Source: an uncultured bacterium
Lineage (GTDB): Bacteria > Chlamydiota > Chlamydiia > Chlamydiales > SM23-39
DNA length: 64,000 bases
Assembly (NCBI GenBank): GCA_963716985.1
Contig: OY970323.1
Span: 1,056,001-1,120,000, forward strand
Reading direction: 5' to 3'
Positions 260-19,946 of the stretch are shown here, in pieces. The position numbers and the translations under genes are program-made. Below the pieces are notes generated by a model. That model had not been told where the DNA came from. It ran no database searches and saw nothing but the letters and a program-made list of their open reading frames with translations. Numbering within the stretch: position 1 is the stretch's first letter; the number at the start of each line of letters is the position of its first letter.

Positions 260-745
260 TTAACCAATGCCGCGTACGGATTCTTGAAAAGCACGGGCCG
301 CAGCCGCTGCCGCTTGCTGGACTGCATCTTCGGCAGTTTTGGCAGAAGTGGCTCCCTGTCCTTGCTGGTTCGAGATCTTTGTGTTTAGGATTGTGGCGTC
401 TCCATCGGCTCGGACTTTCTTAGGATCCGCATAGATTTTGGTCGCTGCTTGTCCGATCTCTGATCCGGTCTTTCCAATCGCTACTAAAAAGTCTTGCGCG
501 GTTTTTCGGTCCGGAGTGTTGCAAACCCCATAGGCAAGCATGTTACAGCCCACAACCATCGTAAGCGTAACGGCAAGTGTGGTAACTGCCTGGAGGCGCG
601 AGGCGTAAGCTGAGTCTCCATATTTTTCTGAGAGATTCGTTAACTCCTTATGCAGTTCGGCAGCCTGAAAGGTTTTTAGCTTGGCTGCGGACGCGTGCGC
701 TTGGGAAAGAACTTCCCCAAGTTTATATTGGGATTCAATGGTCAT
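260..745 (-). CDS. putative minor T3SS translocator (CopD/CopD2-like), short
   Basis: Last gene of an operon with an LcrH-type chaperone. One hydrophobic segment (AVTTLAVTLTMVVGCNMLAYG) and an Ala/Gln-rich amphipathic C-terminus. Position-based call. Confidence 0.55.
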   Translation of the reverse strand: MTIESQYKLGEVLSQAHASAAKLKTFQAAELHKELTNLSEKYGDSAYASRLQAVTTLAVTLTMVVGCNMLAYGVCNTPDRKTAQDFLVAIGKTGSEIGQAATKIYADPKKVRADGDATILNTKISNQQGQGATSAKTAEDAVQQAAAAAARAFQESVRGIG

Positions 746-763
746 AACACTCCTCCATGATTT

Positions 764-1780
764 TTACGTTGGTTGGACGGCAAGTTTTTGACTTGTAATG
801 TAACTTTGCAATGCATCTCTGCACGATTCGTTTAATGTACGCTGCGTGTCCGCAGTTTCTTGAACAGCGCGAGTTGTTTCATTCACACGATGCTTGTAAA
901 GAGCCGATGCGCTTTCGGACTGTTTTCCCTTTTCTTGCATCTGATAGGTATGCGCAGTGTCGATACCGCTTTTGATGCCGAGAAAGACGGATGCGACATT
1001 GATCACAGTCGATACGCCGGAGAATAAAGTGGAGACTTCGGGCCCTAGCTGCCCAGTCCAAAACTGGGGATTGGACACTTGAATGGTCGTTGCCGAAACG
1101 CCGAGGCTGACCAGTCCTAAAAGCGTCGATCCGATCGAGACGCTTTTTTCTAAAAGAGAGGCGAGTTTGGCTCTGTTTTCTTCGTTGTCGGTCACAAGGC
1201 CGGCAAACCAGCTCCATCCCCCGGAAAGGGACATCCCCTGGTTGAAAAGAGCGCCGGATCCCGAGAGCAACAGAGCGTAGGTGAGATAAGCGGTGGCAGG
1301 TCCGGCCCCGGAGATAGTTGCGGCGGTAAAAAAGGTCATGGCCGATGTGAGAGTAGAGGCAATTTGTCGATAGCTGTCCCAATAGGAGGCCCTCTCTTGC
1401 TGTTCTACGAGCGCTCTTTGTTTTTTCGCCCACTCGAGGGCTAGCGTCTCGTGGCGTTTTGTCGCTTCTGTTAATTCTTCTGCTTGGCAGTGGTTCAAAC
1501 GGCCAAGCGTCTCCTCGGCCCCGATTTGGAGCTCCATCAGATCAAAGATCGGAGGATGGGTTTCTTTCTCGGATGATGGCGGGGGGAGTTTAGGGCGGGA
1601 AGGGGGGGAGGGCGATAGAGCATCGAGTGAAGAGGGTGGGGCAATTGCGAGCCGGTCTTGAAAAACGGGGCAGCCGGCCGGCGTTCCTAACATTGCGGGA
1701 GGCGGTAGTTTTTTTGAATTTTCAATGGCCTCTAGAAGCGGGCTTTTTTCTGCTTCGATGGCAGAAAGGGATCTAGGCAT
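764..1780 (-). CDS. putative major T3SS translocator (CopB/CopB2/YopB-like)
   Basis: Pro-rich N-terminus containing PKLPPP (resembles the PxLxxP chaperone-binding motif), a coiled coil, two long hydrophobic regions and a C-terminal coiled coil. Overlaps the chaperone stop. Confidence 0.7.
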   Translation of the reverse strand: MPRSLSAIEAEKSPLLEAIENSKKLPPPAMLGTPAGCPVFQDRLAIAPPSSLDALSPSPPSRPKLPPPSSEKETHPPIFDLMELQIGAEETLGRLNHCQAEELTEATKRHETLALEWAKKQRALVEQQERASYWDSYRQIASTLTSAMTFFTAATISGAGPATAYLTYALLLSGSGALFNQGMSLSGGWSWFAGLVTDNEENRAKLASLLEKSVSIGSTLLGLVSLGVSATTIQVSNPQFWTGQLGPEVSTLFSGVSTVINVASVFLGIKSGIDTAHTYQMQEKGKQSESASALYKHRVNETTRAVQETADTQRTLNESCRDALQSYITSQKLAVQPT

Positions 1781-2165
1781 GGGGCGGCTCCTCTTCTAAA
1801 TGGTTCTGGCTTTTTAATGCCTGGATTTTTTCCAGAAGATCTCTTGGAGGATGGCATTTTTCAGCAGCTAAGAGGGCTTTGAGCGCTTGATTTTTTTCAT
1901 TTTGGGAAAGTAGACACTCGGCTGCATGAAAATGGGGCAGGGGATTTTCAGGATCTAACGTGGCCGTGATGCTCCAGGCGGTGAGCGATTTTTTGTATTC
2001 GCCTTTGACTTGCCAAGAGGCGGCAAGGCCAAACCAGTGGCTCGCTCGATCGGCATCAAGCAGGACAAGGCAAGAAAAGGCTTGAATGGCTTCATCGACA
2101 TGCCCCTTTTCATAAAGGAGGCAGCTTGCCTGATAAAGATCCTGATTGTGCGGATGGATGTTCAT
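1773..2165 (-). CDS. class II T3SS chaperone, SycD/LcrH family (TPR)
   Basis: 130 aa with LY..G...EA...F..LVLLD....HWFGLAA..Q..GEY..... and LDPENPLPHFHAAECLL, the typical SycD/LcrH TPR motifs. Confidence 0.92.
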   Translation of the reverse strand: MNIHPHNQDLYQASCLLYEKGHVDEAIQAFSCLVLLDADRASHWFGLAASWQVKGEYKKSLTAWSITATLDPENPLPHFHAAECLLSQNEKNQALKALLAAEKCHPPRDLLEKIQALKSQNHLEEEPPHA

Positions 2166-3193
2166 CTGCCCTGGCCCATGCGTTCCAAGACATGTCTCAA
2201 AAATTCCTGATAGGCTTTCAACGCTGCTAGCATGGCCTCATCGATTAAGCGCTGCTCGGATTGAATCCCTTGCAGTCCTGTCAACTCTTTGTTGGCGTCC
2301 TGCGGGCCCTGTTCGCACCGAGTTGTGACCACCTGTTCTAAGTCTTTTAACTCTTTTATGAGCTGTTTGATCTCCGCTTTCGACCGTTTGGTAAAATCAT
2401 AGCGCCCTTTTCCTTCTTTTTTGAGAAGTTCGCTCTGATCTTTTAATTCTTCAAGGGCGGCGCACTGTTTCAAACGGGAAGAAAAATCTTCTCTGGTTTT
2501 TGGCACAACGGTTTGATCAAAAGTGATGACGTAGGAGCCGGCCCCGGCGGAGCCAACCCCGTCGGATCCGGATCCGATGGATCTAGATCCACTGGCTAGG
2601 TCTGCTTTTGCTTTCAGGGCGGAAATGTCATAGCCATGATGTTGGAGCACAACTGCGAATTCTTCGTTCAAAACAAGGTCGGATTTTTCGACCCTCTCTT
2701 TTTTTGTCAAAGAAAGGTGTTCTTGGACGGCGGGGAGGGAGAAATCAATCGACTCGATGGCGGGCTCTTTTCCTCCGGGAGTTTCCAGTTTTGTTTTTTC
2801 TCTTTTCAATCTTTGCCGAAGCTCGATCAGGTAATCCAATTTGCCATAGATCTCTTTTGCTTTACGTATGATCTCCCCTTCTCTTTCGTGCAGCTGTTTT
2901 TGTTTTGGAGCGTAAAGAATATCCAGGACCTCGTAGACCATATTGTAGCCAAAGGGATGGGATGTGTGGGGGGAAAGGGAAGCAGATTCGATAGTGCCCG
3001 ACAAGGAGGCCGGAGGTGCCGCAGAGGGAATTTTCAGCGCGCCGGCAGCAGCTTGGTGAACTTTTAGCTGTTCGCGAGTTAAAGGGAGCGTTTCACGGCT
3101 CTCTTGCTGCAGTTGATTGTAGAAGGCGGCGATGACAGGATGCTCGTCAGTTTTTTTCTTCTTGCCTATGCTTGCGACTTTTCCATCGTCCAT
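2162..3193 (-). CDS. hypothetical coiled-coil protein, first gene of the translocator operon (CT863-like position)
   Basis: 343-aa helical ORF whose stop overlaps the chaperone ATG (ATGA). AT-rich promoter region upstream. Confidence 0.7.
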   Translation of the reverse strand: MDDGKVASIGKKKKTDEHPVIAAFYNQLQQESRETLPLTREQLKVHQAAAGALKIPSAAPPASLSGTIESASLSPHTSHPFGYNMVYEVLDILYAPKQKQLHEREGEIIRKAKEIYGKLDYLIELRQRLKREKTKLETPGGKEPAIESIDFSLPAVQEHLSLTKKERVEKSDLVLNEEFAVVLQHHGYDISALKAKADLASGSRSIGSGSDGVGSAGAGSYVITFDQTVVPKTREDFSSRLKQCAALEELKDQSELLKKEGKGRYDFTKRSKAEIKQLIKELKDLEQVVTTRCEQGPQDANKELTGLQGIQSEQRLIDEAMLAALKAYQEFLRHVLERMGQGR

Positions 3194-3403
3194 TTTATTT
3201 TTCCTTTGTTAATTTTATGCGGACATAGCTTTCTCTCTTTTTCGATTCTAAATTAAAAACAAATTAAAAGCTATGCTATTAATTGTTTTAATGAAGAAAG
3301 AAAAAGTTGGCAACTAAAGATAAGTTTTGCATCTCTTTGAAAAAAAATCTAGAAGAAATTTCCTTTTTTTTTAAGTTTATGGATCAACGGAAGTTAAGAC
3401 TTA

Positions 3404-4449
3404 ACGCGATGTGCGAGTTTTTCAAAGCAAAAAATCACACGTAAAAAAATAATTGAAAAATGACAAGTCCTTACTGCACACTGTTTTGCGACAAAACAAC
3501 AACAGGAGTTCAGGACATGTCGATTGATGATTTTATCATAACCACCTTTTGTTTGATAGATGATGAGATGAAGAAGGTTCTTGCAGACGAGAAATTTCGT
3601 CAAAGAGGTCCCTCGCCTAGATTGAAAGACAGCGAGGTTATTACGATGGAGGTCGTTGGAGAATTTTTTGGAATGGACCGTGACAAAACCATTTGGGAAT
3701 ATTTCAAAAGGCACTGGTTGCATTTCTTTCCAAATATTCCTGCACGTTCGAATTTTGTCAGGCAAGCGGCCAACCTTCATGTAGTAAAGCGATTGTTACA
3801 AGAGAGTTTAGCAACTGACCTACATGCTCTTTCTGATTCATTGCACATAATAGACGGGCTTCCTATTCCAGTTTGCAAATTTGCCAGAGCTCACTTTAGC
3901 AAAAATTTCAAGGGCGACGCTGCATATGGATATTGTGCTACAAAAAAAGAGCACTTTTATGGTTTTCGAGGCCATGTTGTCATCAGTTCAATAGGGGTGG
4001 TGACAGCAGCTACATTCGCCAAGGCAAACATTGATGAGCGCGATGTGTGTCCTGAGATTGTGGAAAAAATCGGAGGGCTTTTGTTGGGAGACAAAGGTTT
4101 TATACGACCTGGATTGAAAGAGTTGCTCAAAAAACAAGGGTTGTACTTGCAAACTTCGCTGAGAGAAAATATGAAAGATGAAAGACCGAAGAAATTTTTG
4201 AAATGGCTGGTAGGGACTCGGCGACTGGTTGAAACAGTTATAGGGCAGCTCAATGATAGATTTCGGATTGAAAAAGTATGGGCGCGAGATTTATGGCATC
4301 AATTTTCAAGATTTTGGAGAAAATTACTGGCGCATACTGTCGGCATTAAACTTAATGTAAACGCAGGGAACGAGCCTTTACAGTTTGACCAGTTGCTTTG
4401 TTCTTAAAAGCATAGGCGATTTTTCGCTTTATAAACTCGCACATCGCGT
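3404..4449 (+). mobile_element. IS982-family insertion sequence, intact, copy 1 (1046 bp)
   Basis: 17-bp terminal inverted repeats ACGCGATGTGCGAGTTT at 3404 and 4433-4449. 6-bp target duplication GACTTA at 3398-3403 and 4450-4455. Confidence 0.95.
3460..4407 (+). CDS. IS982-family DDE transposase (probable start 3517, MSIDDFII)
   Basis: Motifs DSEVIT, IIDGLPIPVC, YGYCA..K..FYGFRGH, LLGDKGF and RRLVETVIGQL are typical of IS982 transposases. Confidence 0.95.
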   Translation: MTSPYCTLFCDKTTTGVQDMSIDDFIITTFCLIDDEMKKVLADEKFRQRGPSPRLKDSEVITMEVVGEFFGMDRDKTIWEYFKRHWLHFFPNIPARSNFVRQAANLHVVKRLLQESLATDLHALSDSLHIIDGLPIPVCKFARAHFSKNFKGDAAYGYCATKKEHFYGFRGHVVISSIGVVTAATFAKANIDERDVCPEIVEKIGGLLLGDKGFIRPGLKELLKKQGLYLQTSLRENMKDERPKKFLKWLVGTRRLVETVIGQLNDRFRIEKVWARDLWHQFSRFWRKLLAHTVGIKLNVNAGNEPLQFDQLLCS

Positions 4450-4452
4450 GAC

Positions 4453-5514
4453 TTAAGTCCGCTGTTCATATTCGGCCGCAAGCTGGCCGCAGGCCGCGCC
4501 GATTTCACTGCCGAAGGATTGACGGATCGTTACGTGAACGCCTTTTGTTTCTAACAGTTCTTTGAAGGAGAAGAGAGAGCTTTTTTCGGTCTTGTGAAAG
4601 ATCGTGTTTTCATGCAGCGGAGGGTTGTAGCGGATCAGATTCACGAGAAAGAGGTGGCGCAGATTTTTCCTCTCTAAAAGAGAGCAGAGCTTTTTGGCAT
4701 GGTCGAGCGTGTCGTTTTTCCCGGAGAGCACCATATAGGCGATGTAGGTTTTCTTGTTGGTCTTCAGAATATGCTCTTCCAGTGCCTGGAAAAGCTCTTC
4801 GATCGGGTATTTGTTGTTGAGAGGAACCAAGCTGTTTCGCTCTTCATCAAAAGGGCTGTGGAGGGAGAGCGTTAAGCTGATTTGGGGAAATGCATTCGTC
4901 AGGCGGATCATTCCCTCGGGTATTCCAACGGTGGATAGGGTGAGCCTTCGTTCGCTAAGGCCCATCAATTGCGGATCGGTGAGGAGTCGGAGTGCATCGA
5001 AAAGATTGGGGTTCAGAAAAGGCTCCCCCATCCCCATAAAAGCTACGTTGCGAACCTCCTGATTGTTTTTCATAAAGAAGAGCGGCTGGTCCGCGATCTC
5101 GTCGGACGATAGGCTGCGCCGGAAGGAGATGCGGCCCGTTGTGCAAAAAGCGCACGCACACTGACAGCCTACTTGAGAGGAGATGCAAAGAGAGGTGTGG
5201 TCATTTTGGAACTCCATGCGGACAGCTTCAATGCGGTTTTTGTCAAAAAGCTCAAAGAGAGCCTTGGAGGCTTGGGTCACTTTTTGCGTTTTGGATAGGC
5301 GCAAGGTCAAAATCTCATCCCCCAAAGAGGCGATGATGGCGTCTCTCAAAGATTTCGAGAGGGTGGTGATTTCGCTATAGCGAAGAGCTTTGGTCTTAAA
5401 AATCGCATGTGCGATCTGCGCTCGTCGATAGGGCTTTTCTTCTTTGAGCAAAGAAGCGAGGACCTCGAGTCGAGAGGGTTGTTGGGCGGGAGTTTCTGTA
5501 ATATTTTCTTGCAT
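4453..5514 (-). CDS. Cfr-like/RlmN-family radical SAM 23S rRNA A2503 methyltransferase
   Basis: CISSQVGCQCACAFC (CxxxCxxC), FMGMGEP, SLHSP and AACGQL. Many segments resemble staphylococcal Cfr (YRRAQIAHAIFK, LTDPQLMGLSERRLTLST, YIAYM, VNLIRYNP, VTIRQSFG). ATG at 5514 preferred over TTG at 5568. Confidence 0.9.
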   Translation of the reverse strand: MQENITETPAQQPSRLEVLASLLKEEKPYRRAQIAHAIFKTKALRYSEITTLSKSLRDAIIASLGDEILTLRLSKTQKVTQASKALFELFDKNRIEAVRMEFQNDHTSLCISSQVGCQCACAFCTTGRISFRRSLSSDEIADQPLFFMKNNQEVRNVAFMGMGEPFLNPNLFDALRLLTDPQLMGLSERRLTLSTVGIPEGMIRLTNAFPQISLTLSLHSPFDEERNSLVPLNNKYPIEELFQALEEHILKTNKKTYIAYMVLSGKNDTLDHAKKLCSLLERKNLRHLFLVNLIRYNPPLHENTIFHKTEKSSLFSFKELLETKGVHVTIRQSFGSEIGAACGQLAAEYEQRT

Positions 5515-5649: not shown

Positions 5650-6003
5650 AGTTGATTGCGAAAAATTCGTTTATCGACGGTGGCAATGCGCTCATCCAAT
5701 GCTGTCAATTTAAGAATTCGAGAACTCTTCTCAAGAGGCAAGCTCTTTGCAGCAAAAAGAGACCTTTTCAACTAGCGGAAAATGGCTTCTGCTTTATTTT
5801 TCTCGTTTCCTTCTCCCAACTGTTTGCCTATACACCCGTGAACGCGTGCCTTCTTTGACCTTAATTAAAATATTCAATCAATCTAAATCATTTATATTCA
5901 CTGACATGCGCCCATCCATTAAGTCGACTCCTCTTGGTTATCAACAACTTATGATTACCAGAAAGAGGACATTTCTAAAAAACGGAAAGCGGACATTTTA
6001 AAA
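5650..6003 (-). pseudogene. degraded IS relic (ISNCY/IS1202-like left end plus interrupted N-terminus)
   Basis: Minus strand starts TAAAATGTCCGC...AGAAATGTCCTC (repeated AAATGTCC end motifs), then MDGRMSVNINDLD*LNILIKVKEG with an in-frame stop. Family assignment by recall only. Confidence 0.35.
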
Positions 6004-6019
6004 AAACGCTAATAGTTGC

Positions 6020-6505: not shown

Positions 6506-6806
6506 GGGCGCATTTCCAAATTGTGGGTAGCTCAGGCGATGCATAAGATTCCTCCTTCGTAAACCGCTCTTTTTAACGATTCCCATCGACCGGCCTTGTA
6601 ATAAGCACGTAATAGCAATATTTCCTCAGCCGTGTCCTCATTCCAAAATATGCAGGGCTTTTCAAACGTAAGTTGATCACTCTTCGAACAGCACTTTCTA
6701 TAGCACCACTGCCTATCGGCATGTGCAATGCTCGCATCGCCGCGTAATCCATCCTGTGACGGTTCTTCACAAAATATTCTTGTTCTCCGAAAAGCCCAAA
6801 CTTCAA
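6506..6806 (-). pseudogene. frameshifted C-terminal fragment of an ISKra4/ISLre2-type transposase with right end
   Basis: YFVKNRHRMDYAAMRALHMPIGSGAIESAVRRVINLRLK, then in another frame CIFWNEDTAEEILLLRAYYKAGRW. Probable element end GGGCGCATTTCCAAATTGTGGG at 6506. Confidence 0.75.
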
Positions 6807-6918: not shown

Positions 6919-9900
6919 TTAGTAGTTGATGTTCCACTTTAGCGTGAATTTGCTCTGCTCTTCCTCTTGCATCGTCTCTGCTTGGAAGATAAATCCATGC
7001 TTCAGGTCTACCTCAACGCTGATGTTGGAGCTGTCTTCTTGCGTTCCTTGCGTTAGGGAAACAAGCACGTCCTTCGTGATATATTTTCCCACCTGGACGG
7101 CAATTTTTTCCGATTCGTCGGGGGCGGCTGCGGGAGAGGAGATGATGGTGAAGCGGTCAATGCCAAGGTTTTTTCGGGCCGCTTCTAATAGGTTGGACCC
7201 ATTGGAAAGGCTGGCAATGGTTGTGGCCAGCTGAATGGCTTGAATGCCGGAGATTTCAGAAATATCCTGCCCAAAGATCAGTAGCGACATGATGGAGCTT
7301 AAGGGAAGCGGAGGCAATGATTCGAAGGTAAGAGAGGGCGCATTTAACGGCCCTTTGAGGTGGGCAGAGATCACCACTCCTTTTTGCTGCACCTGTCCTG
7401 CAAGGGACAGAACGGGCAGGGCGCCGATGATTCCGGGGAAGATCAAAGAACCTTGCGTCAGGGTAAACACGCGGCCGGAAAAAGAGTAATCTCCATGAAG
7501 AAGATTTAACTGGCCCTTCGCAATGAGATCGGTATACGATCCTTCGATTTTCAAAGAGCCCATGCATTCGGCATTCAGGCCTTTTCCGGAGATCATGATG
7601 TGATCTTTGGCAAATAGGTCTAAATCTAAATAGAGCGGATAGGGAGTATAAGCGGCGGCGATTTCTTCTTGCTTTTTGGAAAAAGGATGGTTGCGGTAAG
7701 TAATGGTGAAGTCGGGCGAAAAGGGCGGAATGCGATCGGGGACGGAGAGTGAGGCTTTGTTTACTTCGATCCTGCCCACTGCTTTTGCAGAAAGCGAAGT
7801 TCCTTTGATTTGCAGTTTTCCCGAAGTTGTTGCATCGATCAGGTCGGTTTGTATGCTGCTAAGCTTGTCGAGGGCGGCAATGACGAGGAAAGGAAAATGT
7901 TTTTTGGGATCAAGGAGGAGCAGTCCCTTGGCAGCCAGAGATCCGTTATGGAGATCGGAAGCGGTCAGGGATTCGATTTGCAAAAGGTCCTTTTCGGCCT
8001 TGACTTTTGCTTGTAAATTCTTCAAATAGCTTCCGGTATAATAATTCTCATATGTCCCTTTTTCAAATTGGCAAAAACCGTTGAGCTCGGGATGGAGGAG
8101 TGTTTTGGAAAGCTCCATCCGGCACTGCAAATGACCTTTGATCCGATGGGTCCCTAAATCAAAAAAGTCCAAAAGCTCTTCAATGCCGCCATCATAGGTA
8201 AGACGAGAAAAAATAGGCGACTGCTTATCTAGCGAGAAGTGAAAGGGCAAGGGGGTAAGGAGCGCTTGGCCGAAGGCGGAAAACTCCATGATCTCCTTTT
8301 GATTCATGGCAAGGCGGCTCTTTACACTGTAGTTGTTGTCCGCTACCTGGATTTCTACGGCGCCCATGGCGTGAAGAGGGGTCTTTTCCGATAGGGAATA
8401 TACATCCAGCTTTTCTAAAGTCAAATGGATAGCGCCGTTCAGTTTTTGCTCTTTTTGGCGAAGAGTTGCGTCCATAGATGCATGTCCGCGCACGCGCAAA
8501 TTCAGGGGATTGAGAGAAAGAAAGTCGATGGGAAAATGCGTCGAATGCAATTGGATTTCTGCTTCTTGATGCGACAAAAAAATCGATCCCTCTAAAGAAG
8601 AGGAGGCCAGCTGAATGCGAAAATTTTTCATGGAAAATTGATCCGGCGACCATTCCCATTGAATGGGTTCGGGCGCTGCTAAGGGCTGCCCCAGAAGGTG
8701 GCCCGACAGAGCGTCAATAGTTACGAGCAGATCGTTTGGCGAAAACTTCCAAAAACCGCTCGATCGGATCTGAAACGGCTCTTTCCACATCCCGCTTAAG
8801 AAAAGTTCATAGGGCCAATTTTCTTGCCGGTTGGACGTCTCTAAAAAAAGCCCCTTGATGCCAATGTCGCGAAAGGAGGCATCCTGGAGTAAAAATTTAA
8901 GCAAGCCCTTCATTTCAGAAAAAGGCTCTTCGCTATCAAAGGAGAGGTAGGCTTTTTTTCCCGACAGGCTTTGGTAGTGAAAGTTTGTCAAATCGGCCTG
9001 TATTTGCGCTTCCTGCTTGCCCTTGGCATCCGGCGTGGAATAGAGGCGCAAGATCAAGTCGCCGCTTTCTGCAAGGAAGGGCAGATCGGGGAAAAGAGCG
9101 TAAAAAAGGTTCATCTTTTCAAATCGAACCTCGATTTTTCCGGTGAGGAGCCCGAGCGGCGTTCGTTTCAAAGAAGCGGAGGCATGGGCCGAGGGAAGCG
9201 TCAAAGAGGAAGAGCGCAAAGAAAAGACCGCCTCATCCTCCCATTGGAATTCCGCGGTGGCCTTGGCCTTTTCTTTCTTGAAGAAAAAAGTGGATTCAAG
9301 AGAGCCGTTTTCGTTGTGCTTAAGCTGCGAGTTGAGGGCCACGTCTTCAATGGTGTGTGGGCCGATCCGAATTTGAGGGGAGAAGAAGGAGATGTTGAAG
9401 AAAGGGCCAAGCTGAGCGTTGTAATGGAGCTCACCTGCCCCTTTTTCTAACACCAATGCGGGCAGGCGCGGCTCTTGAATGGACAGGTTTTTCGTCTTTA
9501 GAAAAAAGTCGCATTTTTGAAGACCTGACGGGACATCAAAAAAACAGGAGCCTTTTAGAGCGGTCTTGTCATTGACGTAATAAAGGTCGAAGAGCTTGCA
9601 ATTTCGACTCTCGGAAATCTGGAACGAAGAGGCGATTCGCCCTTTGTCGATCCTGAGGTTTTTGAACGGATCCTTTTCAAAGGAGGGAAGACCGATGATT
9701 TTTCCTTTGAGGAAGCCTTCAGCGGCGAGGTTTGTTGCAGCGCCTCTTTCGGAAGAGAGCATCCGATAAAAATTGTCCACCTTTCCCTTGCCGTCGATTT
9801 GCAGAAAAACAGAGGCGTCGTAAGGAAATGAAAAGAGAGAAGAGAGAGAGGGTGTGTCGAGGATGAGGCGCGAGCGGAAGGACCTGGTTTTTTTTGTGAT

Positions 9901-10485
9901 GCTCCCCACCAGTTGCAGCGAGGAGGCTTCCTCATCTTTGGGAGATGCGAGTAGTGCAAAAACAATCTCTTTTCCATTCTTCTCGATCTTTCCCTTGCCT
10001 TTGATGCGCCACTCCTTTTCCAGATGGAGGTCTTCGATCCGAAAAGAGGTTATTTCTAGAGTGAAAGGGGGCTCGACCCAGTGACTTTTGAGATGGATCC
10101 GGAACATCGGCAGCACCTCATTATTTTGAGGGGAGGACTCCATGAGAGTGACATTTTTGGCCACGACTTGAGAGAGCACAAGTTTTTTTACCAAGAGAGG
10201 CAGAGGAGATATGCGAATGGTCAATTGATCGATGGCCACCCGGCGCGATGATGTCGCTTGCAGACGCACCTCATCGAGCCGGAAGGAAAAGGGGGAGAGG
10301 ATTTCTGCCCTTTCTACAGAGATGTTGATCTGATTCTTTTGGCTCCAGGTATGAAGATAGGAGAGAAAATATTCCTGGCCCTTGCGCGTATGGAAAAGAG
10401 AGGCGAGCAGGATAAAAAAGACAAAGAGGCTCAAAAGGGAGTAAAGAAAGGTTTTGAGAAAAAGAAGAGGTAGTTTTTTCATCAA
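6919..10485 (-). CDS. tamB: translocation/assembly module TamB
   Basis: 1188 aa, N-terminal membrane anchor, beta-rich body, C-terminal DUF490-like VGKYITKDVLVSL...FTLKWNINY. Coupled to a TamA-like gene. Confidence 0.88.
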   Translation of the reverse strand: MMKKLPLLFLKTFLYSLLSLFVFFILLASLFHTRKGQEYFLSYLHTWSQKNQINISVERAEILSPFSFRLDEVRLQATSSRRVAIDQLTIRISPLPLLVKKLVLSQVVAKNVTLMESSPQNNEVLPMFRIHLKSHWVEPPFTLEITSFRIEDLHLEKEWRIKGKGKIEKNGKEIVFALLASPKDEEASSLQLVGSITKKTRSFRSRLILDTPSLSSLFSFPYDASVFLQIDGKGKVDNFYRMLSSERGAATNLAAEGFLKGKIIGLPSFEKDPFKNLRIDKGRIASSFQISESRNCKLFDLYYVNDKTALKGSCFFDVPSGLQKCDFFLKTKNLSIQEPRLPALVLEKGAGELHYNAQLGPFFNISFFSPQIRIGPHTIEDVALNSQLKHNENGSLESTFFFKKEKAKATAEFQWEDEAVFSLRSSSLTLPSAHASASLKRTPLGLLTGKIEVRFEKMNLFYALFPDLPFLAESGDLILRLYSTPDAKGKQEAQIQADLTNFHYQSLSGKKAYLSFDSEEPFSEMKGLLKFLLQDASFRDIGIKGLFLETSNRQENWPYELFLSGMWKEPFQIRSSGFWKFSPNDLLVTIDALSGHLLGQPLAAPEPIQWEWSPDQFSMKNFRIQLASSSLEGSIFLSHQEAEIQLHSTHFPIDFLSLNPLNLRVRGHASMDATLRQKEQKLNGAIHLTLEKLDVYSLSEKTPLHAMGAVEIQVADNNYSVKSRLAMNQKEIMEFSAFGQALLTPLPFHFSLDKQSPIFSRLTYDGGIEELLDFFDLGTHRIKGHLQCRMELSKTLLHPELNGFCQFEKGTYENYYTGSYLKNLQAKVKAEKDLLQIESLTASDLHNGSLAAKGLLLLDPKKHFPFLVIAALDKLSSIQTDLIDATTSGKLQIKGTSLSAKAVGRIEVNKASLSVPDRIPPFSPDFTITYRNHPFSKKQEEIAAAYTPYPLYLDLDLFAKDHIMISGKGLNAECMGSLKIEGSYTDLIAKGQLNLLHGDYSFSGRVFTLTQGSLIFPGIIGALPVLSLAGQVQQKGVVISAHLKGPLNAPSLTFESLPPLPLSSIMSLLIFGQDISEISGIQAIQLATTIASLSNGSNLLEAARKNLGIDRFTIISSPAAAPDESEKIAVQVGKYITKDVLVSLTQGTQEDSSNISVEVDLKHGFIFQAETMQEEEQSKFTLKWNINY

Positions 10486-14127: not shown

Positions 14128-15173
14128 ACGCGATGTGCGAGTTTATAAAGCGAAAAATCGCCTATGCTTTTAAGAACAAAGCAACTGGTCAAACTGTAAA
14201 GGCTCGTTCCCTGCGTTTACATTAAGTTTAATGCCGACAGTATGCGCCAGTAATTTTCTCCAAAATCTTGAAAATTGATGCCATAAATCTCGCGCCCATA
14301 CTTTTTCAATCCGAAATCTATCATTGAGCTGCCCTATAACTGTTTCAACCAGTCGCCGAGTCCCTACCAGCCATTTCAAAAATTTCTTCGGTCTTTCATC
14401 TTTCATATTTTCTCTCAGCGAAGTTTGCAAGTACAACCCTTGTTTTTTGAGCAACTCTTTCAATCCAGGTCGTATAAAACCTTTGTCTCCCAACAAAAGC
14501 CCTCCGATTTTTTCCACAATCTCAGGACACACATCGCGCTCATCAATGTTTGCCTTGGCGAATGTAGCTGCTGTCACCACCCCTATTGAACTGATGACAA
14601 CATGGCCTCGAAAACCATAAAAGTGCTCTTTTTTTGTAGCACAATATCCATATGCAGCGTCGCCCTTGAAATTTTTGCTAAAGTGAGCTCTGGCAAATTT
14701 GCAAACTGGAATAGGAAGCCCGTCTATTATGTGCAATGAATCAGAAAGAGCATGTAGGTCAGTTGCTAAACTCTCTTGTAACAATCGCTTTACTACATGA
14801 AGGTTGGCCGCTTGCCTGACAAAATTCGAACGTGCAGGAATATTTGGAAAGAAATGCAACCAGTGCCTTTTGAAATATTCCCAAATGGTTTTGTCACGGT
14901 CCATTCCAAAAAATTCTCCAACGACCTCCATCGTAATAACCTCGCTGTCTTTCAATCTAGGCGAGGGACCTCTTTGACGAAATTTCTCGTCTGCAAGAAC
15001 CTTCTTCATCTCATCATCTATCAAACAAAAGGTGGTTATGATAAAATCATCAATCGACATGTCCTGAACTCCTGTTGTTGTTTTGTCGCAAAACAGTGTG
15101 CAGTAAGGACTTGTCATTTTTCAATTATTTTTTTACGTGTGATTTTTTGCTTTGAAAAACTCGCACATCGCGT
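14128..15173 (-). mobile_element. IS982-family insertion sequence, intact, copy 2 (1046 bp, inverted relative to copy 1)
   Basis: Same 17-bp inverted repeats and identical transposase protein. 7-bp target duplication GATATTA at 14121-14127 and 15174-15180. Confidence 0.95.
14170..15117 (-). CDS. IS982-family DDE transposase
   Basis: Translation identical to 3460..4407. Confidence 0.95.
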   Translation of the reverse strand: MTSPYCTLFCDKTTTGVQDMSIDDFIITTFCLIDDEMKKVLADEKFRQRGPSPRLKDSEVITMEVVGEFFGMDRDKTIWEYFKRHWLHFFPNIPARSNFVRQAANLHVVKRLLQESLATDLHALSDSLHIIDGLPIPVCKFARAHFSKNFKGDAAYGYCATKKEHFYGFRGHVVISSIGVVTAATFAKANIDERDVCPEIVEKIGGLLLGDKGFIRPGLKELLKKQGLYLQTSLRENMKDERPKKFLKWLVGTRRLVETVIGQLNDRFRIEKVWARDLWHQFSRFWRKLLAHTVGIKLNVNAGNEPLQFDQLLCS

Positions 15174-15829: not shown

Positions 15830-16552
15830 TTAGCGTTGTTTTGCCGTCGCGGCACTGGTTGGCGCTGTGGCATTGGCAGGGGCGCAAGTGTTGTACACTG
15901 CGGCAGTAAGTTTATTTAACTGAACCCCCATTTTCTTTAGTTCAGCAACAACAGCAGGATCATTCAAACCTTCTGCCTTCGGGGACGCGAAGCGCTGTTT
16001 CACGCAATCGGGTATCCATCCTGGGAATTTTTCGGCAACAAAGATCCAAGCCGAGTGGATTTTCGTAATAATGGGCGCTCCTATTGCGCTTTTAGCCAGT
16101 TTTTCCCAGTAGGTGCCCACCCCGTTGGTGATTTTTACAATTTTTTCGGCAAACTGGTTTGGATACAGACATCCCAAAAGGGCGAGCGATGCGAGGGCCG
16201 GAATGACAAAGAAGGGTTTGTAGGAGGTCGGTGTCCAAGACCTGCGAGCGAGGAGGTGGTTCTGTTGGGCCTGTTTATTTGAAGACCGAATCCACATATT
16301 GACAGGCTTTGCAATGGCATTGTTATAGATTAATGCAAGAGCATTTTTTGCAAAGGAGGTGAAAAAGTCGAGCATCCAAGCACCGACTTTTGCTCCCGTT
16401 CTTACGAATGGATCGTGAATATCCTTTGTTTGTTCTGCCAGGTTTGTTACTTCATGGAGGCCCCAAGACATGCAGGTGAGTTCTTTTTTTAAGGCGACAT
16501 CGGGACGATAGTAAGGATTGAAAAACGAATTATTGAGGATGGATAAAACCAT
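15830..16552 (-). CDS. array family membrane protein, divergent member 1 (Inc-like candidate effector)
   Basis: Shares NNSFFNPYYRP..AL, GLH..TNL and SW.PTSYK followed by a TM segment with its neighbours. Start ATG 16552. Confidence 0.8.
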   Translation of the reverse strand: MVLSILNNSFFNPYYRPDVALKKELTCMSWGLHEVTNLAEQTKDIHDPFVRTGAKVGAWMLDFFTSFAKNALALIYNNAIAKPVNMWIRSSNKQAQQNHLLARRSWTPTSYKPFFVIPALASLALLGCLYPNQFAEKIVKITNGVGTYWEKLAKSAIGAPIITKIHSAWIFVAEKFPGWIPDCVKQRFASPKAEGLNDPAVVAELKKMGVQLNKLTAAVYNTCAPANATAPTSAATAKQR

Positions 16553-16757
16553 GAGAAAAACCCTTTTTTGTATTTTTTCAAACATTCTAATCCTTTTCAT
16601 CGGTTAAGTCAATAGAAGCTTTTCTGCAATTATTTAAAAAGTTTTTTGAATAGACTTTGTTTCAGGACATCCCTTTTTCTCAAAAATGTCTTTTGCAAGG
16701 GATCTTTTGGTTTGGATTTTTGAAAAGCACTCATGATTGGAGCCGGTTGTTTACCTT

Positions 16758-16791
16758 AAAAAAAAGACCGACCCTTTGAGAGGGGTCGGCC
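16758..16791 (-). terminator. intrinsic terminator (family-conserved)
   Basis: AAAAAAAAGACCGACCC-loop-GGGGTCGGCC. Variants recur at 18918-18955 and 20380-20412. Confidence 0.75.
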
Positions 16792-16820
16792 ATTGGTCTT
16801 TTGAAGATTCCCGTCCCTTA

Positions 16821-17609
16821 TCAGGAGGGAGGAGGGGGCGCGGGTTCAGGGGGTTTTTGTGGTTCTGGTGAAGAATCCCCCCCCTCGACAGGGGAGACGT
16901 TTCCTTTGGCCATGAGGATGTCGTCGGCAATTCTTGAGGTTATGAAGAAGGCGCGAGCTTTTTTTTCCCAGAGGGTGCCTGCAGTGAGTTGGTCATCATT
17001 TTTGATCAGAGCATGCAGTTTACGGCTAGGGCAGCAGCAAGCAAGAGAAATTGCCGCACCGCCTACGACTGTACCACCGATTGCTAGGGCTGCTTTTGTC
17101 CAACTCCGTGATGGAATTTCAGGTGAGATGTCGATGGGTTTTTGTGGTGTTGGTGGAACGATTTCTGGTGGTGTTGTTGGTTGGTCTGATGGTTTAGGTG
17201 TTTTGTCTATTGTTGGGAAAAAATATTTGTATCCAACGACAGCGATTGTGGCAAGAAGGAGAGCGTCAATTGCAAGTGCTCTGTAGGAAATAGGCTTCCA
17301 TGATTGTCGCGCTGCTTTGTCTTGTTCTCTGAGCACATGATTGGAAATTTGAATGAATTTGTTTCGGAGCGGCGCCAATGTAAGAATGTTGTACAAAAGT
17401 GCAAGTAGGCTGCAGGGGATCGCTGTGAAAAGGTCTGCCGCAAAAGCAGCTACTTTTGCCGCTGTGTTCCTGCCGTTCGTTTTTGCAAGGAAGTTTGTTC
17501 CAATATGCAATCCTAAGCGTATGCCGGCTTCTGCTTTCAAGGCAACGGCCGGGCGATAAAAAGGATTGAACCATGAATTATTGAATGGATTACTGATGGT
17601 TTTGACCAT
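16821..17609 (-). CDS. array family membrane protein, copy A
   Basis: GGAGG RBS before ATG 17609. Conserved N-terminus, TM1, Pro-rich linker, TM2 with CCC, unique tail. Confidence 0.85.
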   Translation of the reverse strand: MVKTISNPFNNSWFNPFYRPAVALKAEAGIRLGLHIGTNFLAKTNGRNTAAKVAAFAADLFTAIPCSLLALLYNILTLAPLRNKFIQISNHVLREQDKAARQSWKPISYRALAIDALLLATIAVVGYKYFFPTIDKTPKPSDQPTTPPEIVPPTPQKPIDISPEIPSRSWTKAALAIGGTVVGGAAISLACCCPSRKLHALIKNDDQLTAGTLWEKKARAFFITSRIADDILMAKGNVSPVEGGDSSPEPQKPPEPAPPPPS

Positions 17610-17641
17610 AAAAAAACCTCCGGCACTCATTTTGGTCATTG

Positions 17642-18322
17642 TTAATATGATGCTCTGGGAAAGAGAGCGGGGGCGGGAGAAGAATCGTGGGTATTTAGGC
17701 TATCCGCGAGATTCACCTTGTCCGCTTTAGTCCGTGCGCAGCTGGCGAAGCAAAGAAGAGAAGCCACAATGCTTGTGATTGTACCACCGATTATTAGGGG
17801 TGATAGGGCTGCTTTTTCCCATCTCCTTAATGGAATTTCAGGTGAGATGTCGATGATTTTTGGTGGTGGGGCGATTTCCGGTAGTTTTTCTGGTGGTTTA
17901 GGTGGTGTGATTATTGTTGGGAAAAAATATTTGTATCCGACGACAGCGATTGTTGCCAGAAGGACAGCGTCAATGGCAAGTGCTTTGTAGGAAGTCGGCT
18001 TCCATGATTTTCGAGCTGCTTTGTCTTGTTCTCTGAGCGCATTATTGAAAATTTGAATGAATTTGTTTCGGAGCGGCGACAATGTAAGAATGTTGTACAA
18101 AAGTGCAAGTACGTTGCAGGGGATTGCTGTGAAAAGGTCTGCCGCAAAGGCAGCTACTTTTGCCGCTGTGTTCCTGCCGTTCGTTTTTGCAAGGAAGTTT
18201 GTTCCAATATGCAATCCTAAGCGTATGCCGGCTTCTGCTTTCAAGGCAACGGCTGGGCGATAATAAGGATTGAACCATGAATTATTGAATGGATTACTGA
18301 TGGTTTTGAGTGGAAGCGGCAT
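17642..18322 (-). CDS. array family membrane protein, copy B
   Basis: N-terminal about 130 aa near-identical to copies A, C and D. Unique short tail. Confidence 0.85.
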   Translation of the reverse strand: MPLPLKTISNPFNNSWFNPYYRPAVALKAEAGIRLGLHIGTNFLAKTNGRNTAAKVAAFAADLFTAIPCNVLALLYNILTLSPLRNKFIQIFNNALREQDKAARKSWKPTSYKALAIDAVLLATIAVVGYKYFFPTIITPPKPPEKLPEIAPPPKIIDISPEIPLRRWEKAALSPLIIGGTITSIVASLLCFASCARTKADKVNLADSLNTHDSSPAPALFPRASY

Positions 18323-18520
18323 AAAAAATACCTCTTTTATAGGTTTGGCTGCTTTTTCCCATTAATTGTACTCCATCGGCGAGGTTTTGATCAATGAAAA
18401 TGATTATTTTTTTTTGAACACTTGTTAACTGTCAGAACATACCTCAGTTGTCTTACGGCAGAAAGCCCTTGGGTCGCATAAATTCTAAAAATGCCAGTCA
18501 ACGCATTGTGAGAGAGAGAC

Positions 18521-18692
18521 TTACGAATTCAGAGATTTCCCTATACTTTTCAGGCACAAAGCATGCAATCGACGGCAGACCTGCTGATCTGAACATCTGA
18601 ATCGCTCCCTATCGATCGCCTGCTTGTCTTCTTCTGTGACGATGAACTGGATCACGTTGAGCCCCCCGATGGAATTGTGGGCATCAATTATA
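18521..18692 (-). pseudogene. IS630-like transposase N-terminal stub
   Basis: Minus strand VIQFIVTEEDKQAIDRERFRCSDQQVCRRLHALCLKSIG* resembles IS630 N-termini (…EEK.AL..ER..H....V..R..AL.LKS.G). TATA at the presumed left end. Confidence 0.5.
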
Positions 18693-18849
18693 GGGAAATA
18701 AAAATTTTACTTCACTCGCCATCAACCAATTTTTTCACAACACTTAACGACGCGCGGTATATCTTGAGTATGAGTTGATAGAAACTACTTGGATGATTCA
18801 AAAGCTAAACAACCGTGGCTTTGGTTTTGGGATCTTCACTTTATTTTAT

Positions 18850-18898
18850 TTGGAGGCTACAAGCTTAGACCGCGGCTCAAATTTTTGGGACCATTATA
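18850..18898 (-). mobile_element. IS3-like left-end stub
   Basis: GGAGGCTACAAGCTTAGACCGCGGCTCAAATTTTTGGGACCATTATA is a diverged copy of the end at 20315-20360 that precedes an IS3 OrfA fragment. Confidence 0.55.
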
Positions 18899-19001
18899 AT
18901 GTCGGGTTTTTCACCTTAAAAAAAAGGCCGACCCTTTGGGAGGAGTTGGCCTTTTGGCGTCGAGGGTCATTTTTGAAGATCCGCTTAAAAATCAACGTGT
19001 T

Positions 19002-19946
19002 TTATAAGCTATCAAGAGAAGGGGGGGATTTGATGGTGAGGGTTGCATTGAGGGCATCGCGGGCTTCGTCGGTAGCGGCAAGGAGATCGTAGGCGGCGAC
19101 TCTGATGGGATGGTCTGTGGTGAAGGAGCAGTCGTTGGCGCCTCTGATGATGGCTAGGGCGGCCTCTCTGCAGTTGCTGACGGTGATGGCGAAGTTTTTG
19201 AGGAACTGCTCGTCGTCGGTGCGCCTGCTGGCGGCGTCTCGGAAGGTTTGGGTGTATGATCTGAGGGCTTGGGCGCTTATTTTGAGGTCGTTGACTTTAC
19301 TGGGGTTATTGGCGATGGCTGTGAATGCCTTACGGGTCCTATTCTTAAAAGATTGTGTCCAAATGCTGCAACAGATCAAAGAAGCTACCACAATGCGTGT
19401 GATTGTGCTACCGATTGTTAGGAGTGATAGGGCTGCTTTTGTCCAGCTCCTTGATGGAATTGCATCAAGTGCAATGACTTTTGATAGTGTTGGTATGCTT
19501 GTCACCGGTGGCGTTGATAGGACCGGTTGGTTAAGTGTTGTGATTATTGTTGGGAAAAAATATTTGTATCCGACGACAGCGATTGTTGCAAGAAGGAGAG
19601 CATCAATTGCAAGTGCTTTGTAGGAAGTCGGCTTCCATGATTGTCTCGCTGCTTTGTCTTGCTCTTTGCGCACATAATTAGAAATTTGAATGAATTTGTT
19701 TCGGAGCGGCGACAATGTAAGAATGTTGTACAAAAGTGCAAGTATGTTGCAGGGGATCGCTGTGAAAAGGTCTGCCGCAAAAGCAGCTACTTTTGCCGCT
19801 GTGTTCCCGCCGTTCGTTTTTGCAAGGAAGTTTGTTCCAATATGCAATCCTAAGCGTATGCCGGCTTCTGCTTTCAAGGAAACGGCCGGGCGATAATAAG
19901 GATTGAACCATGAATTATTGAATGGATTACTGATGCTTTTGGCCAT
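19002..19946 (-). CDS. array family membrane protein, copy C (extra C-terminal helical domain)
   Basis: Conserved N-terminus and two TM segments, followed by an Ala-rich helical extension of about 115 aa. Confidence 0.85.
   Translation of the reverse strand: MAKSISNPFNNSWFNPYYRPAVSLKAEAGIRLGLHIGTNFLAKTNGGNTAAKVAAFAADLFTAIPCNILALLYNILTLSPLRNKFIQISNYVRKEQDKAARQSWKPTSYKALAIDALLLATIAVVGYKYFFPTIITTLNQPVLSTPPVTSIPTLSKVIALDAIPSRSWTKAALSLLTIGSTITRIVVASLICCSIWTQSFKNRTRKAFTAIANNPSKVNDLKISAQALRSYTQTFRDAASRRTDDEQFLKNFAITVSNCREAALAIIRGANDCSFTTDHPIRVAAYDLLAATDEARDALNATLTIKSPPSLDSL

Follow-up and report, generated by a model that had tools for sequence, protein, structure and literature searches.

A Cfr-clade RNA methylase gene as the likely substitute for rlmN in a genus of chlamydiae

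We analysed a 64,000-nucleotide stretch of a chlamydial genome (the window) and found that its minus strand carries, at 4453..5514, a radical SAM RNA methylase gene of the Cfr clade (P0001), which is intact and encodes 353 aa with zero internal stop codons. This gene is real, intact, old and rare, and in one chlamydial genus it likely takes the place of rlmN. Cfr is the C8 methylase of 23S rRNA A2503, and RlmN is the housekeeping C2 methylase of A2503 and tRNA A37. Our preferred reading, to which we assign a probability of about one half, is a xenologous replacement in which the Cfr-clade enzyme took over from rlmN as the housekeeping m2A2503 methylase. The protein is predicted to work like an RlmN/Cfr-family methylase, yet it lies outside the limits that were tested for membership of Cfr and of RlmN. 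The genome studied (G000) is one contig of 2.07 Mb, 99.5% complete, and is compared below with a genome of the same genus (G001).

The protein (the query) is 43.6% identical to Cfr(A) by tblastn. In our own alignment, it shares 39-45% identity with six Cfr-family references versus 32-35% with four RlmNs, and its best sequence match in the PDB is Cfr (9P0P, E 8e-93). Foldseek comparison of the AlphaFold model (pLDDT 88.5) gave TM scores of 0.78/0.90 against Cfr (9p0p) and 0.78-0.87 against RlmN structures (3RFA, 5HR6 and 6FZ6), and the best E-value was for an RlmN; the predicted model thus confirms the family fold, in which C2 and C8 activities are not separable. The N-terminal RNA-binding domain is intact. 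Of the eight segments that the preliminary description had listed as following Cfr, seven do favor Cfr(A) over E. coli RlmN (identities of 8/12 vs 2/12, 13/20 vs 7/20, 9/13 vs 5/13, 9/14 vs 3/14, 8/8 vs 5/8, 6/8 vs 2/8 and 5/9 vs 1/9), whereas LGDEILTL gives 2/8 for both enzymes. The cluster motif CX3CX2C (C117/C121/C124), the two catalytic cysteines (C110 and C342, corresponding to C105 and C338 of Cfr) and MGMGE (here MGMGEP) are all present, as they are in RlmN too, together with an RQSFG motif. The motifs SQVGC and MGMGEP had been taken as RlmN-type, but they do not discriminate: MGMGEP also occurs in Cfr(C) and Cfr(D), Cfr(C) carries SQSGC, and Cfr stays active with C110A according to the accessible part of PMC2836569. 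The equivalents of R25, Q28, E91, S189, S212 and H214 are conserved. A promoter and terminator scan found nothing attributable to the gene.

On the NCBIfam Cfr models, the query falls 79-164 bits below all three cut-offs (NF011024, 389 against 468; NF000424, 391 against 530; TIGR04432, 386 against 550), and its 259 bits on the RlmN model TIGR00048 are also under the cut-off of 290. The Cfr of Planifilum scores 548, 542 and 544.5 bits on the same three Cfr models and passes two of the three cut-offs. In an IQ-TREE phylogeny (LG+G4; 83 chosen rows from a 313-row alignment), the query is placed within a 100/100 clade holding all Cfr references, which upholds the Cfr affinity proposed earlier. It lies outside a 99/98 clade that unites validated Cfr with Planifilum and Chloroflexi and contains all tested Cfr enzymes. 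Its chlamydial members form their own 99/89 subclade (the query, its G001 counterpart, a protein from a third genome, G029, and two to three other sequences); relatives of the query cluster with a record that bears the name Chlamydiae, and the G029 protein carries the label Chlamydiota. Canonical chlamydial RlmN forms a separate 100/98 clade, and an AU test on 34 rows rejected the grouping of the query with it (p=3.3e-8). The query therefore does not branch within the vertically inherited chlamydial RlmN, nor does it occupy a conserved RlmN locus, and the horizontal origin relative to that lineage, as first suggested, holds up. An exclusive grouping with six named Cfr/Clb/CipA references was likewise rejected on 34 rows (p=0.003), under a constraint chosen after the trees had been viewed.

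The named neighbors of the query in the outer Cfr grade are mostly Patescibacteria. Cfr-like proteins of Patescibacteria and environmental origin (WWE3, Shapirobacteria and Dojkabacteria) belong to the same grade, and the chlamydial proteins are set apart from them by their subclade; a QSF motif is found in 86 of the 116 aligned first-search matches. The Cfr clade as a whole is placed beside, or nested among, Patescibacteria RlmN-like proteins (100/99; FastTree 98). It is possible that Patescibacteria are the origin of cfr, and long-branch attraction is conceivable in these trees, which were built with LG+G4 and FastTree only. No donor of the gene could be identified from the trees or by scanning GTDB genomes and metagenomes for sequence patterns, and the scans gave no further close relative among the matches listed (best 45% and 41%, respectively). 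None of this branch was found among the plasmid records listed. One transcript protein labelled Yihiella yeosuensis (P0107; 44% match, RNSF motif) may be eukaryotic or come from an associated bacterium.

At the positions of Cfr Y97, W101, S103, S151, Q329 and F330 the query has F, H, S, N, S and F, and at S153 it has A; the set of pocket residues on which resistance depends in Cfr(A), the first six of these, is thus not kept in full, nor is the conserved S153. W101, S151 and S153, replaced in the query by H106, N156 and A158 (own numbering), are kept by all named Cfr examined, a set that leaves out Cfr(E), and by the Planifilum enzyme. The N at the S151 position is the RlmN residue, S103 and F330 are Cfr-type, the residue at 97 is aromatic, and several sites are neither Cfr- nor RlmN-type. 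Histidine is the commonest residue at position 101 among outer clade members (71/125) and, on that comparison, does not appear to represent decay in the query. The sequence had been called intermediate, and our columns, which were derived from our own alignments, agree: 10 discriminating columns hold 5 Cfr-type, 2 RlmN-type and 3 other residues, and the Cfr-specific columns kept, of 31, number 16 in the query, 29 in Planifilum and 1 in canonical chlamydial RlmN. The query also keeps 12 of 21 positions that are common to all seven Cfr references yet rare in RlmN. In the G029 member, four positions of the pocket carry the RlmN-type residue (R, T, N and V).

In Cfr(A), RlmN-type changes at Y97, W101, S103, S151, Q329 and F330 lower resistance, and S151N reduces both resistance and dimethylation; the same source, available in part, reports that in the absence of RlmN m2A2503 is formed by Cfr itself (PMC12887959). 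The nearest tested enzyme by identity is the Cfr of Planifilum fimeticola (PfiCFR), which shares 46.5% identity and the RQSFG motif with the query, as against R[ST]QF in named Cfr; unlike the query, it keeps Y97, W101, S151 and S153 and groups with validated Cfr. We took P0036 to be PfiCFR by its species name and its identity to Cfr (57.6% here, 57.7% in Table S1 of PMC10557674). In the accessible text of that paper, PfiCFR and the P. fulgidum enzyme PfuCFR raise MICs 32- to >4096-fold, and C8 methylation (m2m8A2503) is demonstrated for PfuCFR (PMC10557674). Absence of Q329 had been considered near-decisive against C8 activity; this argument was dropped, the C8-active Planifilum Cfr being RQSF as well. 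Because that enzyme is C8-active despite RQSF, single-residue rules taken from Cfr(A) are unsafe for natural homologues. Set against the known systems as a whole, the query resembles Cfr(A), Cfr(B), Cfr(C), Cfr(D), ClbA/B/C and CipA in fold, catalytic set, S103, F330 and membership of the wider Cfr clade, and differs from them in lying outside their clade and under their cut-offs and in carrying Y97F, W101H, S151N and S153A. It resembles RlmN in chemistry, fold, the N at 151 and its role as sole family member, and differs from RlmN in its low identity, its TIGR00048 score and the rejected grouping with chlamydial RlmN.

Canonical rlmN lies beside pgsA in several relatives of the same family, mostly with a glycosyltransferase-like gene nearby. 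This slot is assembled in both G000 and G001 and rlmN is absent in both; in G001 the two flanking genes lie ~400 bp apart on one contig. Remnants of rlmN were sought at two ancestral slots and genome-wide, and nothing rose above noise. The preliminary description had named, as a result that would speak against its own proposal, a genome without any further member of the family, and this is what we found: tblastn and the TIGR00048 profile, run over the whole genome, returned the query as the sole RlmN/Cfr-family gene, with no separate canonical rlmN. As a side observation, the former rlmN slot of G000 contains a 5'-truncated upp (uracil phosphoribosyltransferase; L314, G000:C1:1674796-1675353) that is absent from the G001 slot.

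The orthologue in G001 is 71% identical, free of IS elements, and located between the same two neighbors, which in the window are, on the downstream side, the gene that opens a cluster resembling those for type III secretion translocons (2162..3193, minus strand, with a SycD-like chaperone next) and a tamB-like gene on the upstream side (6919..10485, minus strand). The Cfr-like gene and tamB have diverged equally from G001: pN and pS are 0.190 and 0.729 for the former and 0.179 and 0.728 for the latter, with synonymous sites near saturation, and the dN of 0.22 and dS of ~2.7 for the Cfr-like gene equal those of tamB. Given the syntenic, IS-free orthologue and the tamB-like divergence, the gene predates both the species split and the IS982 insertion and is under purifying selection; by these comparisons it is old and vertically kept. 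Named Cfr genes are accessory genes beside a housekeeping rlmN and often mobile, in contrast to the query gene, which is chromosomal, vertically inherited, the sole family gene, syntenic and IS-free in G001. Its GC3 (4456-5514) of 0.61 is at the top of the range of 1126 genes and speaks against our preferred reading, though the neighbors are also high (0.48-0.57) and the G001 orthologue is not raised (0.44); by codon-usage distance it reaches no higher than the 79th percentile.

Several features of the neighborhood were recorded in passing. The translocon-like cluster consists of four genes (260-3193, minus strand) and looks like an operon for a type III secretion translocon; the ORF of its SycD/LcrH-like chaperone (1773-2165) scores 86 bits, under the cut-off; two other ORFs of the cluster diverge ~2x faster than tamB relative to G001. 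Between the Cfr-like gene and tamB, G001 has three paralogous hydrophobic ORFs (L022:10895-13543) with no Pfam match above cut-off; the corresponding interval of G000 contains a 110-aa ORF along with IS relics. At 15830-19946 (minus strand) is a tandem family of at least 4 paralogous ORFs (226-314 aa) that share a motif at the N-terminus in which N, P, F and Y abound.

An IS982-family element (3404..4449, plus strand; transposase ORF 3460-4407) with 17-bp terminal inverted repeats abuts the gene. It is flanked by a 6-bp target duplication, GACTTA, at 3398..3403 on the left and 4450..4455 on the right, and the right copy includes the stop codon of the gene (4453-4455), just as first described. 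The transposase scores 237 bits against an NCBIfam cut-off of 130, so that transposase, repeats and duplication are all in place. The element has 8 copies in the genome (99.8-100% identical), with an own 6-7-bp duplication at the 7 copies scored of 8; a second, identical copy is located in inverted orientation at 14128-15173 with its own 7-bp duplication, GATATTA. The IS relics noted upstream are real but small, namely a degenerate end of a ~1.66-kb multicopy ISNCY-family element (5848..6014; 82% identity, with the match reaching ~6097 against some copies) and a fragment resembling the C-terminus of an ISKra4/ISLre2 transposase (6573..6806, minus strand) ~1 kb upstream of the Cfr-like gene. 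Dispersed repeats make up 10.8% of the genome, and a repeat within 500 bp is found on at least one side of 186/1025 genes and on both sides of 17/1025. A composite transposon carrying the gene was considered and rejected: both IS982 copies of the window have their own duplications, and the would-be cargo is syntenic in G001. The link between IS elements and the arrival of the gene, implied in the preliminary description, is not supported, given the IS-free orthologue at the same locus, the tamB-like divergence and the intact duplication of the IS982 itself. We concluded that the IS982 is a later, independent insertion and that it and the upstream relics were added to an IS-rich genome, an incidental context for the gene.

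The Cfr-like clade was detected in 3 of 401 chlamydial genomes (G000, G001 and G029, each with >370 bits; the next score is 211.5), and together they stand for no more than two independent events. None of them has a canonical RlmN: a canonical chlamydial RlmN query finds only 37-38% identity at best in the three, and it matches the family sister of G029 (G097) at 61% versus 38% in G029 itself. G029 retains a second, distant paralogue and has its Cfr-like gene among ordinary genes. No family match was found in 73/335 high-quality chlamydial genomes (5/68 in the family of G000); RlmN is thus dispensable in the phylum, so its loss alone does not demand a replacement. Separately, in the small-genome chlamydiae of family f16 a match to the RlmN/Cfr family at E<=1e-20 was seen in 0/30 genomes. 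Two genomes of the same family as G000 (f1), G005 and G009, have a single and different non-canonical RlmN, which indicates that displacement of rlmN recurs in the family. This second non-canonical type (L033, L034, L040 and L041, from G009, G005, G022 and G019) makes up a separate clade with 100/100 support, and G005, G009 and G022 have no other family match.

Core Cfr shows the opposite pattern outside the chlamydiae: all five core-Cfr carriers among the clostridial genomes have a second family gene (79 scored of 81 genomes), as does Bacillus atrophaeus beside its Cfr. Among 201 genomes of the Microgenomates class, 7 carry an outer-grade Cfr-like gene, each as the sole family gene; this status is uninformative because 173 of the 201 have no family gene.

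Under the replacement reading, an ancestor of the genus would have acquired a Cfr-clade gene horizontally, likely before the neighboring IS arrived, and the acquired enzyme would have replaced the deleted rlmN as the C2-methylase of 23S rRNA A2503. A second target could be tRNA A37, and drug resistance would be little or none. Following the established RlmN/Cfr chemistry, one SAM would methylate C342, a second SAM would give rise to the 5'-deoxyadenosyl radical that joins the C342 methyl with the adenine ring, and the resulting cross-link would be resolved by C110. We infer A2503 as the target and C2 as the carbon from sequence features. The target base, at the position that we take to be A2503 by E. 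coli numbering, is intact in both rRNA operons of G000. Close to it, the 23S rRNA (G000:C1:466700-466800 and 1480880-1480980) shows an apparent compensatory base-pair change relative to the usual bacterial sequence, presumably at 2509/2579 in E. coli numbering.

Housekeeping m2A2503 methylation is favored by the sole copy, the loss of rlmN, the recurrent displacement in the family and the RlmN-leaning pocket taken together. A tentative alternative makes the enzyme a genuine methylase of C8, or of both C2 and C8, which would form m2m8A2503, cover the loss of rlmN and confer an intrinsic chromosomal PhLOPSA resistance. Dual activity would account equally well for the sole copy, and the 100/100 Cfr superclade, the identity and RQSFG shared with the C8-active Planifilum enzyme, S103, F330, the aromatic residue at 97 and the 16/31 Cfr-specific columns (against 1/31 in chlamydial RlmN) all point in this direction. 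On the other hand, the query is outside the 99/98 clade of Planifilum and validated Cfr, the tighter grouping with the six named references is rejected, the Cfr cut-offs are missed by a wide range of bits, W101, S151 and S153 are absent, and the branch is absent among the plasmid records listed. A resistance function is possible, and this reading is weakened and no further than that, because the natural RQSF-type Planifilum enzyme is C8-active.

An unlikely reading, modelled on clostridial Cfr-like enzymes, is that the enzyme acts at another RNA position or on tRNA only and leaves A2503 unmodified. Cfr-like enzymes of C. sporogenes and C. phytofermentans are reported, in the accessible text of PMC5062987, to be inactive in A2503 methylation, and a pocket that at several sites matches neither Cfr nor RlmN, together with the many chlamydiae without any family member, would fit such a role. 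The non-Cfr clostridial family genes that we sampled (a sample without the two enzymes of PMC5062987) all group with Bacillus RlmN, however, and the query is much closer to Cfr than any of them; the intact N-terminal RNA-binding domain and R25/Q28 equivalents also speak against this reading. Least probable by far is a cfr resistance gene recently mobilised as the cargo of a composite transposon. The IS982 at the stop codon, the upstream relics, the rarity of genes with repeats on both sides, the second, inverted IS982 and the high GC3 may suggest it, but they have to be set against the same-locus gene without IS in G001, the divergence equal to that of tamB, the duplications belonging to individual IS982 copies, flanking elements from three different families, the high repeat content of the genome and the ordinary surroundings of the G029 gene.

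Chlamydiae were already placed in a broad 'Cfr branch' in the accessible part of PMC2836569; we infer that this entry is the distant second paralogue, which falls outside the Cfr clade in the present trees. A 2026 survey of the cfr family applied a >50% identity filter, below which the query falls, and its main text makes no mention of chlamydiae (PMC13436266); a preprint, seen in part, lists 1,252 cfr matches in CPR genomes (10.64898/2026.07.13.738296). Related literature, likewise accessible in part, includes PMC4689488, PMC10838301, PMC8752094 and PMC12458371. Within a coverage that excludes most subscription journals, we found no literature on this protein and none combining chlamydiae, cfr and resistance.

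The rise of C8 specificity from C2-only ancestors and the source of cfr are stated as open questions in the parts available of PMC5062987 and PMC12887959. A doubtful but consequential scenario is that this chlamydial genus relies on a C8 or dual C2/C8 enzyme as its one housekeeping methylase for A2503, with C8 activity ancestral to a large outer Cfr grade rooted among Patescibacteria; if so, cfr resistance would have originated outside Firmicutes, and an intracellular bacterium would have intrinsic PhLOPSA resistance. If the enzyme makes m8A, a functional cfr reservoir would reach into the chlamydiae and probably the Patescibacteria. If it makes m2A only, as the replacement reading holds, a Cfr-clade enzyme would fill a housekeeping role, and the 'adenine-C8' labels that databases give to its close relatives would overcall resistance. 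The clinical resistance concern is minor, the gene being rare (3/401 genomes), chromosomal, old and not mobilised. The query occupies the branch that separates RlmN from all tested Cfr enzymes and is the only candidate for A2503 methylation in its genome; what makes it valuable is the chance to locate the onset of C8 specificity.
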